Origin: a virus
Taxonomy: Duplodnaviria; Heunggongvirae; Uroviricota; Caudoviricetes
IMG/VR virus record: IMGVR_UViG_2693429623_000020
DNA: 9,840 nucleotides
Strand: one strand, 5' to 3'
Shown here in pieces: positions 3,243-9,840 of this stretch. The notes below the pieces were generated by a model. It saw only the letters and a list, made by a program, of their open reading frames with translations, did not search any database and was not told the DNA's origin. A program made the translations under genes and the position numbers. Numbering within the stretch: the stretch's first letter is position 1; each line of letters opens with the position of its first letter.

Positions 3243-3542
3243 ATGAGAACGTATTTATCTGGCTTGACTGCCAGCGGTTATGCACACCCCCAAATTATCC
3301 CCGGCGCTATTTATCTTGATAAGAACGGTAACAGAGTAACGGTAAAAGAACTGATGTTTGACCGTGTGTATTTTATTCGTGATGGCTATTCATTTCATAG
3401 TTCGCTGAACGTGGAGATCTTTATTAGCAGATTCAGGCGGGAAATCCCGCTTTCCAGAAATAACCATGTGTCACGTGTGGATGTGGATAAAAAACTACAG
3501 GAACTGAAAAACATGATTGCCGCGTGGAGAGAGCAGAAATGA
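3243..3542 (+). CDS. Hypothetical protein (99 aa), translationally coupled to the replication gene
   Basis: ORF whose stop overlaps the start of the next gene (ATGA at 3539-3542). No recognisable motif. Confidence 0.55.
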   Translation: MRTYLSGLTASGYAHPQIIPGAIYLDKNGNRVTVKELMFDRVYFIRDGYSFHSSLNVEIFISRFRREIPLSRNNHVSRVDVDKKLQELKNMIAAWREQK

Positions 3543-5356
3543 AAAAAGCGCCAAATTTAAAACACCAGCCGCGTGACAAAATGACGGAAGTCATCATTTT
3601 TGCGGGTAGTGATGCGTGGGCACATGCGAAACAGTGGCAGGAACAGGACGGGCGACTGGCTGGCGATAACGTGCCACCTGTCTGGCTTGGAGAGCAACAA
3701 CTTGTCGAACTGGACAACCTGCAAATCGTACCGGACGGACGCTATCGCGTGCGTCTCTATCAGGCGGGGTTATTGCGTCCGGGGCTTGTTAATACCATCG
3801 GGCAGAAACTGGCAGAGGCAGGTGTCAGGGATGCTGATTATTACCCTGAAGGAATGCACAGCCAGAAACGGGAGAACTGGCGTGAATATCTGGAACGTGA
3901 ACGGGCAGAGCTGGCGGAAAAGAAAAAGGTAGTTGAACTGCCTGTAAAGAAAAAAGAGCGGGTAAAAGACGATAACGCTTCATCACTGGCGCTTAACCAG
4001 ATGGGAGCAAGTCAACGCGGCGAAGTTCTCCTGGCACATTATGGCGGTGAACTGGCGATTCATGCTGACTCTGACACTGTTCACCATTACAACGGCATTG
4101 TATGGGAGCCAGTACAGGATAAAGAATTACAGCGAGCTATGGCGCAGATTTTCATTGATGCGGAGATCAGCTATTCGCAGAACGCCATTAAATCGGCGGT
4201 CGATACCATGAAGTTAAGTTTGCCTGTTATGGGGAATACAGCCCGTAACCTGATTGGATTCAGTAACGGGGTATTTGATACCAGAACAGGTAATTTTCGG
4301 GAGCATAACAAAAACGACTGGTTGTTAATTGCCAGTGAATTACCTTTCAGCCCACCAGCAGAGGGGGAAACGCTGGCAACACATGCGCCGAATTTCTGGA
4401 AGTGGTTACGCCGTTCGGTGGCTGAGAATGACCGCAAGGCGGATCGCGTACTGGCTGCATTATTCATGGTGCTGGCGAACCGGTACGACTGGCAGTTATT
4501 CATTGAGGTAACAGGTCCAGGGGGAAGTGGTAAAAGCGTGATGGCGGAGATTTGCACCATGCTGGCGGGTAAGGCCAACACAGTATCGGCAAGCATGAAG
4601 GCGCTGGAAGATGCAAGGGAACGCGCGTTAGTGGTTGGCTTTTCGCTGATTATCATGCCGGATATGACCCGCTACGCTGGTGATGGGGCAGGAATTAAGG
4701 CCATTACAGGCGGTGACAAGGTGGCAATTGACCCGAAACACAAAGCCCCCTACTCAACGCGTATTCCGGCAGTAGTGCTGGCGGTTAACAATAACGCCAT
4801 GTCATTCAGTGACCGCAGCGGGGGGATCTCACGTCGTCGGGTGATATTCAATTTTTCGGAAGTTGTACCGGAGAACGAACGCGATTCAATGCTGGCGGAA
4901 AAAATAGAAGGTGAGCTGGCGGTAGTGATTCGTCATCTGCTTACACGGTTTGCTGACCAGGACGAAGCCAGACGCCTTTTATATGAGCAGCAGAAATCAG
5001 AAGAAGCACTCGCGATAAAGCGTGAAGGTGATTCGCTGGTGGACTTCTGCGGCTATCTCATGGCGTCGGTAATGTGTGATGGCCTGTTAGTGGGTAATGC
5101 TGAAATTGTGCCATTCAGCCCGCGCAGGTATCTCTATCATGCCTATCTGGCTTATATGAAGGCACATGGGTTTGGTAAACCTGTAACACTGACGCGCTTC
5201 GGTAAAGATATGCCGGGGGCAATGGCGGAATATGGCAGGGAGTATATGAAACGGAAAACGAAGCACGGTTTGCGTTCAAACGTGACACTGACGGAGGAAT
5301 CAGAAGACTGGATGCCATCATGTGTATCGGTCACTAATGACGATAGCAAAAATTAA
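3539..5356 (+). CDS. Replication initiator, P4-alpha-like C-terminal region (D5_N-like plus SF3 helicase P-loop NTPase), 605 aa
   Basis: Walker A motif EVTGPGGSGKS; the surrounding NGVFD..TG...EH and FW.WL.R context is typical of the phage/plasmid primase P4-family C-terminal domain. Start set at the ATG at 3539 (ATGA overlap, GGAGAG RBS) rather than the track start 3524. A canonical primase domain is not obvious in the N-terminal 250 aa. Confidence 0.85.
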   Translation: MKKAPNLKHQPRDKMTEVIIFAGSDAWAHAKQWQEQDGRLAGDNVPPVWLGEQQLVELDNLQIVPDGRYRVRLYQAGLLRPGLVNTIGQKLAEAGVRDADYYPEGMHSQKRENWREYLERERAELAEKKKVVELPVKKKERVKDDNASSLALNQMGASQRGEVLLAHYGGELAIHADSDTVHHYNGIVWEPVQDKELQRAMAQIFIDAEISYSQNAIKSAVDTMKLSLPVMGNTARNLIGFSNGVFDTRTGNFREHNKNDWLLIASELPFSPPAEGETLATHAPNFWKWLRRSVAENDRKADRVLAALFMVLANRYDWQLFIEVTGPGGSGKSVMAEICTMLAGKANTVSASMKALEDARERALVVGFSLIIMPDMTRYAGDGAGIKAITGGDKVAIDPKHKAPYSTRIPAVVLAVNNNAMSFSDRSGGISRRRVIFNFSEVVPENERDSMLAEKIEGELAVVIRHLLTRFADQDEARRLLYEQQKSEEALAIKREGDSLVDFCGYLMASVMCDGLLVGNAEIVPFSPRRYLYHAYLAYMKAHGFGKPVTLTRFGKDMPGAMAEYGREYMKRKTKHGLRSNVTLTEESEDWMPSCVSVTNDDSKN

Positions 5357-5369
5357 ACTTATGGAATAA

Positions 5370-5592
5370 CTGTTCACCACTGTTCACCCTGTCATAAATA
5401 TCTTTTGTATCAGTATGTTATAGGGTGAACAGTTATTTATGAACTGTTCACCAAACTATTCACTGTTCACCTTTTTGATTGTTTATTGAGCTTCAAGGGT
5501 GAACAGTGGTGAACAGTTGGTGAATAGTTTTTGTGAAACTGTTCACCCCTTAACATTATGAATTAAAAGATAAAATATCAAAAGGTGAACAG
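5370..5592. repeat. Replication origin: at least nine 9-bp iterons CTGTTCACC / GGTGAACAG in both orientations in an AT-rich background
   Basis: CTGTTCACC at 5370, 5380, 5444, 5463, 5539; GGTGAACAG at 5424, 5498, 5508, 5584; degenerate copies near 5454 and 5518. The core TGTTCACC is the type I iteron bound by P4 alpha (from memory). Located directly after the alpha-like gene. Confidence 0.8.
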
Positions 5593-5643
5593 GTGAAGGG
5601 TTAAAACGCAAAAATTTTAATTTACTGCTGTGAGATAAAGCCT

Positions 5644-5889
5644 ATGACAGCGAAGCACACAAAAAAATCACAATCGCACGCCCTTGATTTGACGGAACAC
5701 TGGTTAAGGGTGTCGATAAAAATCATCGACCGCAACGCCGGGGAAGGATATGCGAAAGCACATCCCGAACTGATTAGCTCATTCATGACAACGGCAGCTG
5801 CAAACTTTGCCACGCTGACAGAACGGGAGATTGCCGAAGCGGAACAGGTGACAACCATCAACGTTAAAACCGGAGAGCAGACAGCATGA
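5644..5889 (+). CDS. Hypothetical protein (81 aa)
   Basis: ORF whose stop overlaps the start of the SSB-like gene (ATGA at 5886-5889). Weak RBS; no recognisable motif. Confidence 0.45.
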   Translation: MTAKHTKKSQSHALDLTEHWLRVSIKIIDRNAGEGYAKAHPELISSFMTTAAANFATLTEREIAEAEQVTTINVKTGEQTA

Positions 5890-6269
5890 CAGCACAGATA
5901 GCGGCTTACGGGCGGCTGGTGGCTGACCCGCAGTTAAAGACCACCAGCAAGGGTACACAAATGACGATGGCGAGTATGGCGGTCCCACTTCCGTGCAGCC
6001 AGGCAGATGACGGAACGGCGACGATGTGGTTATCCGTCCTGGCGTTTGGCAGACAGGCCGAAGCACTGGCAAAGCACCGCAAGGGCGAACTCCTGAGCGT
6101 GGCGGGTAACATGCAGGTGAGCCAGTGGACCGGACAGAACGGGGAGACGCGGCAGGGCTGGCAGGTTATCGCAGACAGCGTAATCAGTGCGAGAACGGCG
6201 CGACCGGGCGGCAAAAAAGGCCAACAGGCGGGAAATGATGATCCGTACGGGGATAACATACCGTTTTAA
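5886..6269 (+). CDS. ssb: Single-stranded DNA-binding protein-like (OB fold with SSB-type acidic C-terminal tip), 127 aa
   Basis: Ends in DDPYGDNIPF (E. coli SSB ends DDDIPF). The core pattern G.L..DP...W..V..FG..AE.....KG....V.G.......W....G..R matches the SSB OB fold. Confidence 0.65.
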   Translation: MTAQIAAYGRLVADPQLKTTSKGTQMTMASMAVPLPCSQADDGTATMWLSVLAFGRQAEALAKHRKGELLSVAGNMQVSQWTGQNGETRQGWQVIADSVISARTARPGGKKGQQAGNDDPYGDNIPF

Positions 6270-6284
6270 GCAACGAGTAACAGA

Positions 6285-6307
6285 AGCCGGAGCAATCCGG
6301 CTTTTTT
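6285..6307 (+). terminator. Rho-independent terminator after the SSB-like gene
   Basis: Hairpin AGCCGGA-GCAA-TCCGGCT followed by TTTTTT. Confidence 0.7.
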
Positions 6308-6309
6308 AT

Positions 6310-6381
6310 GGGTCCTCCCGGTGTAGTGACCTGCCACGGGGCGGGAGCGTCGCGGAAAAAGGCTGGTTTTTGCATTTTCAT
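6310..6381 (+). other. cos-like element, copy A (lambda cosQ-cosN-like), upstream of the capsid module
   Basis: GGGTCCTCCCGGTG...CCACG GGGCGGGAGCGT CGCGG...TTTTCAT. Lambda's right end/left end junction as I recall it is TTTACGGGTCCTTTCCGGTG...GTTACG | GGGCGGCGACCT | CGCGGGTTTTCGC. 66/72 identical to copy B. Putative 12-nt cohesive end at 6339-6350. Confidence 0.55.
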
Positions 6382-6427
6382 GGCGGCGGCAGCATGTGTA
6401 GTAATTTATTGATAATTAAAAGTTATT

Positions 6428-6525
6428 TCTGTTTTCACCTGTACAATATTTTTTTCTCCCTGTCATTAGACCAGTTTGCAATTAATTGAAATATATAAAT
6501 AAATCTGTTTTTCACCTGCCAGGTG
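6428..6525. promoter_or_regulatory. Capsid-operon leader motifs: two CTGTTTT(T)CACCTG iteron-like repeats and a 13-bp palindrome CACCTGCCAGGTG
   Basis: TCTGTTTTCACCTG at 6428-6441 and TCTGTTTTTCACCTG at 6504-6518; palindrome at 6513-6525. The motifs resemble the ori iteron CTGTTCACC with a T-insertion. Confidence 0.35.
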
Positions 6526-6568
6526 GAGTTGCCTGTGTCAAAACGTGTTCAGATGGCGGGATATTTAT

Positions 6569-6693: not shown

Positions 6694-6900
6694 GTGAGTT
6701 GTATTAATGACCTGAACACGGGCGATATCAGGGGTGGTTCCGTTCATCTGGATGCGCAGACCGTTATGCGCCTTAAGCAGTACAGGATCGACCATATAAA
6801 TCATCATCCTGACAAACCATTACCAGGTGTGGCGCAGATTGTCAGACATGCCGTAAACACCTGGCTTAATCAGAATGGTTTTGCATCGGTGGGGGAATAA
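6694..6900 (+). CDS. Small RHH-like putative DNA-binding protein (68 aa), first gene of the capsid operon
   Basis: GTG start with AGAGGAAG RBS. SVHLDAQTVMRLKQY...VAQIVRHAVNTWLNQ fits a strand-helix-helix pattern. Its stop overlaps the start of the capsid gene (TAATG). Confidence 0.5.
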   Translation: MSCINDLNTGDIRGGSVHLDAQTVMRLKQYRIDHINHHPDKPLPGVAQIVRHAVNTWLNQNGFASVGE

Positions 6901-8813
6901 TGAATCGCTGGTACACCATTAAGGCGGCGGATGTTCGTGGAGCGGCGGATATATCTATCTATGAGGAGATTGGCGGCTTCGGTGTTACTGCAAAGCAGTT
7001 CGCGGAAGACCTGAAAGCCCTTGGCGATGTTTCACATATCAATCTGAGGATCCATTCACCAGGTGGTGATGTGTTTGAAGGCATCGCCATCTATAACCTG
7101 CTACGGAATCATCCGGCAGACATTACGGTTTATATCGATGGTGTTGCGGCTTCAATGGCTTCGGTGGTCGCAATGGCTGGCGATCGTGTAGTGATGCCGG
7201 AGAACGCCATGATGATGATCCATAAACCGTGGGGGATCTCTGGCGGAAATGCTGGCGATATGCGTGATTATGCTGATTTGCTGGATAAGGTGGAAACCGT
7301 GTTAATCCCTGCTTATGCCAGAAAAACGGGCAAATCAGCACAGGAAATTACCGCCATGCTGGAGGATGAAACCTGGATGGATGGGAAAGAATGCCTTAAG
7401 CACGGTTTTGCTGATGAATTGTTGCCATCCGTCAGAGCAATGGCGCGAATTGAATCGAAACGCACAGGAGATTTTTTACATATGCCGGAAACCATTAAAG
7501 GAATGATTACACCGCCACAGGGAGCGGCAAATATTGCTGGTAATGAACAGAAGCGCATCAATGGAATAAGTGAAGTGTTTAGCCTGTTCGGCAGTCGTTA
7601 CGACGGGATCAAAATGGCGTGTCTGGAAGATGCATCATGTACACCGGAAATGGCCCGTGAAAAGCTGTTGAACGAGCTGGGGCGCGAGTCCACGCCATCC
7701 AATAAAAATACCCCGCCTCATATCTATGCTGGAAACGGAAACATAACAGGTGATGCAATTCGTCAGGGGCTTTATTCCCGTCTTGGGTATGAACGGCCTG
7801 AACGAGGCAACCCTTACGCGATGATGAGTCTTTTTGAAATGGCCCAGGCATCACTGGTTGATCGTGGTATCACTGTGAGCGGTTTTATTAATCGCTCGCA
7901 GGTTGTTAATGCGGCTTTTACACACAGCAGCAGTGATTTTTCTCATATTCTGGCTGGTGGGGCTGAAAAATCTGTACTGAAAGGCTGGCAGGACAGCGGC
8001 GAAACGTTCCAGAAATGGACGCGTACCGGTTCGCTTTCAAACTTTCATGAAGCAAAGCGCGTTGGTCTGAATGGTTTTTCAAAGCTGGATAAAGTACCGG
8101 AAGGTGCGGAATATAAATACATCACCACCAGCGATAAAGGTGTACCTATTGCGCTGGCCACGTACGGGAATATATTTTCCGTTACCCGTCAGGCCATTAT
8201 CAACGATGACCTGACCCAGTTAACTACAATCCCCATGGCGATGGGACGCGCAGCTGCCAGAACAGTTGGCAATCTGGTTTATCTCCTGTTAACCAGCAAC
8301 GGCAAGTTTACGGATGGTAAAGCGTTATTCCATGCCGATCATAAAAATCTTATTGCGAAGGATATGGACATGGAGGGGCTTAACGAAGCCCGTAAGCTGA
8401 TGCGCCTCCAGGAAGACGCTAACGGCGATTCGCTGAATATTACCCCTGCATTTGTCCTGGTCCCCGCCGCGCTGGAGTCTGCCGCACATCGCGCCATTCT
8501 GTCATCGTCATCACTCTTTCCGGTTGATGGCGTGGGCACTATCAATCAGAACCCCGGCATCATTAACGTGGTGAAAGATATGGCGGAGGTAATCGTTGAG
8601 CCACGTCTTGATAAAGCCAATAACAAGGAGTGGTATGTGGCAGCGGCGAAGGGTATGGACACGATAGAGGTCGCTTATCTTGATGGTATTGATACGCCAT
8701 ATCTTGAGGAGCAGGAGGGCTTTACTGTTGATGGCGTCGCCTGGAAGGTGCGCATAGATGCAGGTGTAGCGGCCCTCGACTATCGCGGATTACTGAAATC
8801 GAGTGGAGCATGA
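6900..8813 (+). CDS. ClpP-like (S14) prohead protease fused to an HK97-fold major capsid protein (637 aa)
   Basis: N-terminal about 190 aa contain DGVAASMASVVAMAG and MMIHKPWGISGG, matching the ClpP active-site Ser and His motifs (GQAASMGAF / MIHQPLGG). The C-terminal 350 aa (..TIEVAYLDG..FTVDGVAWKVRIDAGVAALDYRG) resemble HK97-like major capsid proteins. GGGGGAA RBS. Confidence 0.85.
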   Translation: MNRWYTIKAADVRGAADISIYEEIGGFGVTAKQFAEDLKALGDVSHINLRIHSPGGDVFEGIAIYNLLRNHPADITVYIDGVAASMASVVAMAGDRVVMPENAMMMIHKPWGISGGNAGDMRDYADLLDKVETVLIPAYARKTGKSAQEITAMLEDETWMDGKECLKHGFADELLPSVRAMARIESKRTGDFLHMPETIKGMITPPQGAANIAGNEQKRINGISEVFSLFGSRYDGIKMACLEDASCTPEMAREKLLNELGRESTPSNKNTPPHIYAGNGNITGDAIRQGLYSRLGYERPERGNPYAMMSLFEMAQASLVDRGITVSGFINRSQVVNAAFTHSSSDFSHILAGGAEKSVLKGWQDSGETFQKWTRTGSLSNFHEAKRVGLNGFSKLDKVPEGAEYKYITTSDKGVPIALATYGNIFSVTRQAIINDDLTQLTTIPMAMGRAAARTVGNLVYLLLTSNGKFTDGKALFHADHKNLIAKDMDMEGLNEARKLMRLQEDANGDSLNITPAFVLVPAALESAAHRAILSSSSLFPVDGVGTINQNPGIINVVKDMAEVIVEPRLDKANNKEWYVAAAKGMDTIEVAYLDGIDTPYLEEQEGFTVDGVAWKVRIDAGVAALDYRGLLKSSGA

Positions 8814-8820
8814 CAACAAG

Positions 8821-8843
8821 GGCGGCGATAGCCGCCTTTTTTT
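8821..8843 (+). terminator. Rho-independent terminator after the capsid gene
   Basis: Hairpin GGCGGC-GATA-GCCGCC followed by TTTTTTT. Confidence 0.7.
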
Positions 8844-8845
8844 AC

Positions 8846-8917
8846 GGGTCCTCCCGGTGGGGTGGTCTGCCACGGGGCGGGAGCGGCGCGGAAAAAGGCT
8901 AGTTTTTGCATTTTCAT
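8846..8917 (+). other. cos-like element, copy B (lambda cosQ-cosN-like), about 150 bp upstream of the Nu1-like terminase gene
   Basis: TTTACGGGTCCTCCCGGTG...CCACG GGGCGGGAGCGG CGCGG...TTTTCAT. Same arrangement as lambda, where cos precedes Nu1. Putative 12-nt cohesive end at 8875-8886. Confidence 0.6.
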
Positions 8918-9070
8918 TCGTCATCATCATCTTCATATTGTATTGAATTTTAAGTATTTTTATTTTTGGTATGTTAATTTTGCTTGTTTTATGCTCAACA
9001 TATAGCGCATTTTTTGACCTCTTCTGAAAGTTGTTCGCAAGATGCATGTTTAAAACATTCTGGAGCGGGT

Positions 9071-9556
9071 ATGGATCGAGAACTGAAAAATCTGATGCTG
9101 AACATTAATCAACTGGCGGCGATAGCGGGAATATGTCGTCAGACTGCGGCGGCAAGGCTGAAAAACATCCAGCCAGCCGGAGGGCATGACAAGCTGAAAC
9201 TCTATCGGGTGACTGACATTCTGACCTGTTTTCTTGATCTTCCCGTTCCGGCATCACTGGAAGAAATGGAGCCACATGACCGTAAGGCCTGGTATCAGTC
9301 CGAACGTGAACGCCTCAAGTTCGAACAGGAAACGGCGCAACTCATACCCGCCGATGATGTGCGAAAAGAGATGGCTATATGGGGAGAAATCGTAAGCGAG
9401 GAACTGGCAAAACTCCCCAATATTCTGGCACGTGATGCCGGGCTTAAACCGATGGCAGTAAACAGAGTGCAGTCAATTATTGACGATTTGTGTAATCAGA
9501 TTATCAGCCGGATGGTAAAAAATGACGTAGTGAATGAGGTCGCAAAACAGGCATGA
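9071..9556 (+). CDS. Terminase small subunit-like protein (lambda Nu1-like N-terminal winged HTH), 161 aa
   Basis: Start at the internal ATG 9071 (GGAG 5 nt upstream). LNINQLAAIAGICRQTAAARLKNIQPAGGHDKLKLYRVTDILTCF parallels Nu1 VNKKQLADIFGASIRTIQNWQEQGMPVLRGGGKGNEVLYDSAAVIKWY, and it sits just downstream of a cos-like site. It could instead be a packaging-redirection factor (Rpp-like). Confidence 0.6.
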   Translation: MDRELKNLMLNINQLAAIAGICRQTAAARLKNIQPAGGHDKLKLYRVTDILTCFLDLPVPASLEEMEPHDRKAWYQSERERLKFEQETAQLIPADDVRKEMAIWGEIVSEELAKLPNILARDAGLKPMAVNRVQSIIDDLCNQIISRMVKNDVVNEVAKQA

Positions 9557-9840
9557 TAATGACCGAATCTGAAATACTGCGATTAATCCGCTGTGCTGGT
9601 GGAATTAGCCAGTTGGCTGACGAACAGGCCGCGCAGCCAGATACAGTCACCGCTGAAAATTACGCGCGTGTGGTGGCTGAGGTGATGCGCCGTGACGGTA
9701 TTGAGCTTAACGGCGTGGATATGCGCAACATACGAACCAGAGTCCTTGAGTTGCTGGCATACCGTCACCGTTCTCAACAACGGAGGGAGAGCGCGAAAAA
9801 TACTTATCAGTGGAAGAAGCCGGAATGGTTGCGGCGGTAA
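9553..9840 (+). CDS. Hypothetical protein (95 aa), translationally coupled to the terminase-like gene
   Basis: ATGA overlap at 9553-9556; stop at the last base of the window. No recognisable motif. Occupies the position where a large terminase would follow Nu1 in lambda. Confidence 0.5.
   Translation: MIMTESEILRLIRCAGGISQLADEQAAQPDTVTAENYARVVAEVMRRDGIELNGVDMRNIRTRVLELLAYRHRSQQRRESAKNTYQWKKPEWLRR

Follow-up and report, generated by a model that had tools for sequence, protein, structure and literature searches.

Satellites that carry packaging sites of the type of their helper phages are already known. The PICI EcCICFT073 has two functional cos sites with cosQ and cosN of the helper type (PMC6092414, PMC6739421), and the SaPIs have a helper-type cos and/or a TerS of their own, together with a homologue of a capsid protein (Ccm in the case of SaPIbov5; PMC6092414, PMC5052747). 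The TerS-encoding branch of E. coli PICIs, in which EcCIIHE3034 and EcCI18098 are listed (Fillol-Salom et al. 2018, PMC6092414, Table S1), has been catalogued without a helper or a described cos, and the islands of IHE3034 and 18098 showed poor transfer, with no helper identified (PMC6092414). To this branch we add a probable helper class and a second cos, as well as the finding that the modularity of the satellite TerS is reversed.

The DNA analyzed here (hereafter, the window) is a stretch of 9,840 nucleotides from the IMG/VR virus record IMGVR_UViG_2693429623_000020. It is a PICI-type satellite of E. coli with the gene order int, alpA, primase, probable iteron origin, SSB, protease/capsid fusion, cos and terS. 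The stretch flagged in an earlier note, which had been made from the letters alone, is a lambda-type cos with a non-lambda cosN class and an expected feature of an already catalogued PICI family. The genes of the window are as follows.

1-1239, tyrosine integrase
1570-1866, AlpA
between AlpA and the primase in the gene order, DUF4222 protein
3524-5356, D5-type primase
5886-6269, SSB
6900-8813, + strand, fusion of a ClpP-like prohead protease and a major capsid protein, the satellite's own homologue of a helper-type head protein
9071-9556, + strand, 161-aa small-terminase-like protein (Pfam DUF1441; PHROG 141, 'terminase small subunit')
9553-9840, + strand, 95-aa ORF (PHROG 1561) with a basic C-terminus, overlapping the terS stop

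The only morphogenesis genes found in the window are terS and the protease/capsid fusion, the latter sharing 58% identity with its counterpart in phage vB_EcoS-606R10. A large terminase, a portal and head-tail connectors of its own are absent, and the island therefore falls outside the cf-PICIs. In E. coli AR_0011, the island is flanked by cspD/yljB and clpS, and its end is located about 0.6 kb past the 95-aa ORF; cspD-clpS is also the att site of EcCIIHE3034 and EcCI18098. The EcCIIHE3034 locus (NC_017628.1, 920000-931100) carries the lambda cosN GGGCGGCGACCT at about locus positions 8970-9030. Since its backbone is shared and its packaging module is different, the window represents a sibling island whose packaging module has been exchanged, and from this comparison of sequences it appears that sibling islands at one att site exchange whole helper-matching packaging modules on one backbone. 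The small ORF at the end (93-95 aa) is retained in EcCIIHE3034 behind a TerS from another family and therefore belongs to the satellite backbone, not to the swapped module. The possibility that this ORF is a mimic or a fragment of the TerL N-terminus was rejected, as BLASTP shows no similarity to TerL.

Some further observations concern the backbone. Immediately downstream of the primase gene, an AT-rich region (5350-5605) contains at least 11 copies of the iteron GGTGAACAGT, in both orientations. Since origins of replication occupy this position in PICIs, the array is probably the satellite ori. A 348-aa ORF at 1877-2923 matches a PHROG 'transcriptional repressor' family only with its last ~90 residues; in related islands, the same region is annotated as short Icd-like, BRO-N or YlcI/YnfO genes or as pseudogenes, and it is therefore a variable or rearranged part of the island. 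A closely related island is present in a complete E. coli genome as the 10,790-bp circular 'plasmid' pZ1323HEC0475-3 (NZ_CP148328.1), and this circular record suggests an excised, replicating form of the island. In NZ_CP148328.1, fragments of tail-protein genes separate the capsid gene from cos, and GGGCGGGAGCGG is present in each of its two cos sites.

We consider it likely that 8844-9070 is a working cos site (cosQ-cosN-cosB) serving both the initiation and the termination of packaging of this PICI-type satellite. Its parts, including the terminator that precedes it, are listed below.

8821-8843, + strand, terminator-like hairpin GGCGGC-GATA-GCCGCC with a run of seven T, read from the sequence, which ends the capsid gene
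8844-8859, + strand, cosQ region ACGGGTCCTCCCGGTG, near-invariant across 58 unique sequences of the family
8870-8891, + strand, cosN CCACG/GGGCGGGAGCGG/CGCGG (CCACG 8870-8874, 12-mer 8875-8886, CGCGG 8887-8891)
8887-8917, + strand, conserved right flank of cosN, CGCGGAAAAAGGCTAGTTTTTGCATTTTCAT, colinear with lambda bases 13-40
8918-9070, + strand, AT-rich cosB-equivalent, 99% identical to prophage L052, a putative binding region
8918-8931, + strand, TCGTCATCATCATC block within the cosB-equivalent
8936-8948, + strand, IHF-like TATTGTATTGAAT, a weak match
9028-9056, + strand, 29-nt near-invariant imperfect palindrome AAGTTGTTCGCAAGATGCATGTTTAAAAC, found by repeat search

The earlier note had aligned the element to the lambda cos junction. 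In the lambda reference (NC_001416), the junction reads ...CACTTTACGGGTCCTTTCCGGTGATCCGACAGGTTACG/GGGCGGCGACCT/CGCGGGTTTTCGC, the ends being ...CTTTACGGGTCCTTTCCGGTGATCCGACAGGTTACG and GGGCGGCGACCTCGCGGGTTTTCGC..., and TTTACGGGTCCT, CCGGTG, ACG/GGGCGG and CGCGG are all present and colinear, so that the lambda sequence used in the earlier note was accurate. The 12-mer TTTACGGGTCCT (8841-8852) is identical in lambda, as is the cosQ heptamer GGGTCCT at 8846-8852 (lambda 48473-48479); the T-run of the capsid-gene hairpin abuts cosQ and provides the TTT of TTTACGGGTCCT. The start at 8846 given previously is thus that of the heptamer, but the lambda-identical stretch begins five bases earlier, at 8841. 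Between cosQ and cosN, CCCGGTG is also present and colinear, and the spacer from cosQ to the predicted nick measures 22 nt in the window versus 23 nt in lambda. Around the center of the 12-mer, CCACG and CGCGG (CCGCG when reverse-complemented) form flanks with two-fold symmetry: 6 of 11 position pairs are symmetric in the window versus 5 of 11 in lambda, as counted by hand. Throughout the family, these flanks are invariant. The last six bases of the 12-mer had all been thought to differ from lambda; five of them do (positions 7, 8, 9, 11 and 12 of GGGCGGGAGCGG), but C10 is common to both.

A colinear local alignment of 8841-8917 with the lambda cos junction gave a score of 20, although stringent scoring (+2/-3) aligns the cosQ block only and a softer scheme is needed for the full colinear match. 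In dinucleotide shuffles, the control that had been proposed for this similarity, scores averaged 10.0 +/- 1.7 and none of the 2000 reached 20 (z = 6.0). When both strands of the window were searched with the lambda cos core, the two best matches were the present site and another cos, at ~6300.

The alignment to lambda stops ~40 nt past the nick, and cosB here goes with a different family of terminase small subunits from that of lambda. In agreement with the earlier reading that a lambda-like R-site array is missing, a repeat search of 8887-9075 recovered no repeat resembling the lambda R sites (R1-R3), only the one imperfect palindrome at 9028-9056, which is the strongest candidate binding site of TerS. 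The IHF-like stretch has two mismatches to the consensus YAANNNNTTGATW, in an AT-rich region where chance matches are likely. A conserved ATTGA core is located ~65-70 nt from the nick, and the perfect consensus occurs in phi458, 569R4 and cdtI.

The search for relatives of the cos region by BLAST against phage genomes retrieved mEp460, phi458, vB_EcoS-569R4, vB_EcoS-606R10 and PhiR40/47/55, and further cdtI, Tritos, Fels-1, VT1-Sakai and Stx2 phages; lambda was not among the matches. The closest relatives of this cos are lambdoid prophages and phages with DUF1441 small terminases, not lambda. In the relatives (seven phages and a complete prophage), the cos region is found between the Rz lysis gene and terS/terL. 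The proposal that cosQ-cosN lies just upstream of a small-terminase gene is borne out by a base-for-base alignment with these lambdoid cos regions, in which cosQ and CCACG/GGGCGG../CGCGGAAAAAGGCTAGTTTTTG are shared and are followed by lineage-specific, AT-rich cosB types. A comparison of 58 unique sequences from satellites and phages shows a near-invariant cosQ, cosN and right flank, and it is the cosB types that vary.

The prophage most similar to the window (L052) encodes a lysozyme, Rz, cos, a DUF1441 TerS, a gpA-family TerL and a lambda-family portal; a complete prophage of this type, with a lambda-like order of head and tail genes, is present in E. coli CFSAN064035. Its identity to the window changes abruptly at two positions, as given below.

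8780-8842, upstream of the cassette, 43% identity to L052
8844-9319, cosQ to terS codon 83, 470/476 (98.7%) identity to L052
9320-9553, 3' half of terS, 63% identity to L052

Phage homology thus begins exactly at cosQ (8844), after the capsid-gene terminator. In a satellite context, the cassette was identified in ~190-210 of 5426 complete E. coli genomes. The phage version matched at 100% is present in two of the 5426, and more distant phage versions are found in more than 1200. The cassette of the window is ~80-90% identical to those of the far commoner prophages of the 606R10, phi458 and mEp460 types.

By analogy with lambda, nicks are predicted at 8874/8875 on the top strand and at 8886/8887 on the bottom strand, which would leave GGGCGGGAGCGG (8875-8886) as a 12-nt 5' cohesive end. 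The records of cdtI (circular numbering) and Tritos (linear) both start with GGGCGGGAGCGT at the base homologous to 8875, exactly where the earlier note had placed the nick, and end in ...CCTGCCACG, i.e., in CCACG; the numbering of these records may itself have followed the analogy with lambda. Among IMG/VR and JGI/ENA metagenome contigs scanned for the cosN pattern, no contig starts at the predicted nick, and the matches at ~20 nt from contig ends look like breaks of the assembly graph caused by repeats (IMG/VR, metagenomes). A literature search returned no report of GGGCGGGAGCG as a phage end, and nothing useful on EcCIIHE3034/EcCI18098 or Tritos. Within a set of 110 cos sites (GTDB, IMG/VR loci), phages almost always have GGGCGGGAGCGT and the terS-proximal cos of satellites usually ends in ...GCGG; that is, overhang position 12 is T in most phages and G in most satellite terS-proximal sites. 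As there are exceptions in both directions, position 12 is a G/T polymorphism in phages and satellites alike.

The TerL of L052 matches PF05876 and PF20454 (GpA_ATPase, GpA_nuclease). Since the TerL of the cognate phages is only 25% identical to lambda gpA, the 12-nt stagger carried over from lambda is an extrapolation. The TerLs of L052 (4492-6591) and of cdtI (L002 733-2829) share 88% identity overall, with practically no differences from residue 381 to the end. Their first ~20 residues diverge, and the N-terminal third is more variable. This divergence parallels the differing C-termini of the corresponding TerS proteins, suggesting co-varying contact surfaces between TerS and TerL, and it is the N-terminus of TerL to which TerS would be expected to bind.

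Given that near-identical cos sites are found in this lambda-like prophage family, its members are the probable helpers. For the terS-proximal cos, sequence comparison predicts helpers of the CFSAN064035 prophage, mEp460, phi458 and 606R10 types, and not lambda, phi80 or 21. The earlier note had expected a cohesive end distinct from that of lambda to matter for helper compatibility. The connection between cosN class and helper is supported by the sibling EcCIIHE3034, which pairs the lambda-type GGGCGGCGACCT with a Nu1-like TerS, but compatibility depends on recognition of cosN and cosB by the TerL and TerS of the helper and not on the overhang as such.

A second cos, missed in the earlier note, occupies 6285-6540.

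6285-6307, + strand, terminator ending the SSB gene, a GC-rich hairpin with a T-run
6310-6316, + strand, second cosQ, GGGTCCT
6339-6350, + strand, 12-mer of the second cosN, CCACG/GGGCGGGAGCGT/CGCGG
to 6540, + strand, second cosB of the cdtI/Tritos type, running into a decayed terS start

This site is located 2536 bp upstream of the first, in the same orientation, and no terS follows it. Its identity to cdtI and Tritos, measured over 190 nt starting at the nick, amounts to 95.3%. Both cassettes start directly after a GC-rich hairpin with a T-run (that of the capsid gene and that of the SSB gene, respectively), and their joints are equally placed relative to cosQ. Thus, the two cassettes of the window have cosQ and cosN in common and take cosB from two TerS lineages. 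For the second cos, the predicted helpers, again based on similarity, are of the cdtI and Tritos types. As the nuclease half of the cdtI/Tritos-type TerL is identical to that of the L052 type, the satellite is probably able to exploit two helper lineages with different TerS/cosB specificity.

Beyond homology and conservation, the steps of packaging described here are modeled on lambda biology. After induction of the helper prophage, the satellite would be excised and replicated from its iteron origin. A DUF1441 small terminase, be it that of the satellite, that of the helper or both, would then bring the gpA-family large terminase of the helper to cosB, the winged-helix domain of DUF1441 binding within 8918-9070; cleavage is attributed to the helper-encoded TerL because the island encodes none. 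The terminase would nick the top strand of cosN behind CCACG and the bottom strand behind CCGCG, with a stagger of 12 bp, and packaging would proceed rightwards through terS until a second cut at the next cos, made with the help of cosQ (8846-8852), for which a role in termination is proposed, and leaving the 5' overhang GGGCGGGAGCGG.

The gene behind the first site had been described in the earlier note as a Nu1-like small terminase. In Pfam, the 161-aa protein matches only PF07278 DUF1441 (E 1.3e-35), and no match to PF07471 Phage_Nu1 was obtained even at E up to 5. At the level of PHROGs, lambda Nu1 matches PHROG 141 at 6e-8 and the 161-aa protein matches the PHROG of Nu1, number 57, at 5e-7; in addition, a Nu1-type N-terminal winged helix-turn-helix is present. 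Considering these remote matches together with the lack of a Phage_Nu1 match, the description is true as regards the fold and remote homology, but the Pfam family is DUF1441 instead. A PDB sequence search with both small proteins for Rpp or Nu1 gave no match (RppC, E up to 1).

The two halves of this protein have different relationships. Residues 1-83 (9071-9319) are 100% identical to L052, and this half occurs in the same variants in phages and satellites, with that of another satellite matching L053/L054 at 98-99%. From residue 84 onward (9320-9553), the proteins form two clades, with identities of 96-100% within the phage clade and 92-100% within the satellite clade, versus only 56-59% between the two. 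The charge of the tail was compared in 102 full-length homologues, including 81 of phage type and 13 of satellite type. In the 81 phage-type TerS, the tail is acidic, its last 16 residues carrying a mean charge of -6.2, whereas the 13 satellite-type proteins end in ...SRMVKNDVVNEVAKQA, with a charge of 0 to +1 over the same residues and no acidic tail. These 13 C-terminal halves are paired with at least five N-terminal types, including those of phi458 and VT1-Sakai. The central conserved motifs LP.IL.RD and RVQSIIDD are kept in the satellite TerS.

Owing to the absence of the acidic tail, the satellite TerS may not recruit TerL on its own. The reading that we prefer is that it does so by itself, to which we would give roughly an even chance. 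A less probable alternative is that cos is functional and the DUF1441 protein is not autonomous, being an Rpp-like factor or a decoy that acts with or against the TerS of the helper. Its DNA-binding domain, identical to that of the helper, could conceivably occupy cosB or co-assemble with helper TerS, and the divergent, non-acidic C-terminal half might, just as tentatively, alter or block the recruitment of helper TerL, leading to redirected packaging or to phage interference. Such a role would be consistent with an N-terminal half and a cosB identical to those of the phage joined to a C-terminal half that is ~57% identical and forms a separate clade, with the difference in tail charge described above, and with Rpp as an established precedent in sibling PICIs (PMC6739421). 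However, no sequence similarity to RppC is detectable in the PDB (E up to 1), the cosB of the satellite is the same as that of the matching phage, unlike in the Rpp system, and the retained LP.IL.RD and RVQSIIDD motifs could be a real contact with TerL.

It is improbable that the locus is an inert prophage remnant, in which cos and the 5' half of terS were recombined into the integrated island and are neither cut nor used. The 98.7% identity of the cassette to a prophage and its boundaries, which are sharp recombination joints, would fit such an origin, as would the decayed terS start after the second cos and the almost complete lack of transfer of related islands in the sole published test (PMC6092414). 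However, the homology begins exactly at cosQ and not at an arbitrary point, and cosQ, cosN and the right flank are intact in both cassettes, with flanking phage DNA absent. Moreover, terS is open, its satellite-specific half is 92-100% conserved across dozens of islands, and the presence of at least five phage-type N-terminal domains on one C-terminal half argues for repeated, selected exchange and not for decay; the element is also found as a circular replicon. Finally, that the G-rich stretch 8846-8891 is a transcriptional or regulatory element for terS (terminator read-through, attenuator or G-quadruplex) and not a cleavage site is most unlikely, since, despite its several G runs and its position between terS and a terminator hairpin, which it directly follows, a promoter scan of the + strand found none here, the conserved blocks coincide with the functionally defined cosQ and cosN of lambda and with no promoter or terminator consensus, and the second copy in the window has no gene behind it.

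With a working cos as the preferred reading of the locus, the private C-terminal half of TerS and the two cos cassettes might together represent an undescribed strategy of packaging hijack, which we put forward as a speculative proposal. According to it, the lineage would keep a conserved, non-acidic C-terminal half and repeatedly swap in the DNA-binding half and the cosB of circulating lambdoid phages, a doubtful but possible scenario; the second, protein-less cos could, with similar reservation, mimic the other helper lineage with the same TerL nuclease. If true, this would be the mirror image of the SaPI TerS and distinct from Rpp, and the private C-terminal half would have a specific task: it might provide insulation from the TerS rings of the helper, change the recruitment of TerL or establish a coupling to capsids made by the satellite. 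The modular TerS also bears on why some PICIs carry two cos sites. The predictions that follow from the analysis are a cut at 8874/8875 and 8886/8887, the overhang GGGCGGGAGCGG, and helpers among lambdoid prophages that have a DUF1441 TerS and this cosN; these cosB sites are not expected to be recognized by lambda or phi80, which served as helpers for EcCICFT073.

Compared with known systems, the locus shares with lambda cos the order and orientation relative to terS and the AT-rich cosB between cosN and terS. Lambda differs at 5 of the 12 overhang positions, in a spacer that is 1 nt longer, in its R1-R3 sites and in its Phage_Nu1 TerS. The phages with a DUF1441 TerS are true homologues, with near-identical cosQ, cosN and right flank. 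In them, however, Rz precedes the site and a full terS and terL come behind it, whereas in the window the site comes after the capsid-gene terminator and is followed by a terS with a different C-terminal half, without terL.

Among the satellites, EcCIIHE3034 has the same att site, the same int/alpA/DUF4222/primase/SSB backbone, a cos directly upstream of its own terS and the small ORF after terS. It differs in having a lambda-type major capsid protein with a decoration protein, a Nu1-like TerS of 180 aa and the cosN GGGCGGCGACCT. With EcCICFT073, the window has in common the int-alpA-pri backbone, a size of ~11 kb, two cos sites with cosQ and cosN copied from helper phages, and, encoded beside cos, a small protein whose DNA-binding domain is TerS-like. 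In EcCICFT073, the cosN is the lambda GGGCGGCGACCT and the cosB is unlike that of any helper, and the island depends on Rpp; in contrast, the window has the GGGCGGGAGCGG class and phage-like cosB sites (99% identical to L052 and, for the second, 95% to cdtI/Tritos), no Rpp-encoding gene is present in the window, and its DUF1441 protein has no sequence similarity to Rpp. The SaPIs, including SaPIbov5, resemble the window as satellites with a helper-type cos and/or a TerS of their own, plus a capsid homologue. The TerS of SaPIs differs from that of the helper in DNA recognition and still works with the helper TerL. The TerS of the window reverses this pattern, its DNA-binding half being identical to that of the phage and its C-terminal half divergent.
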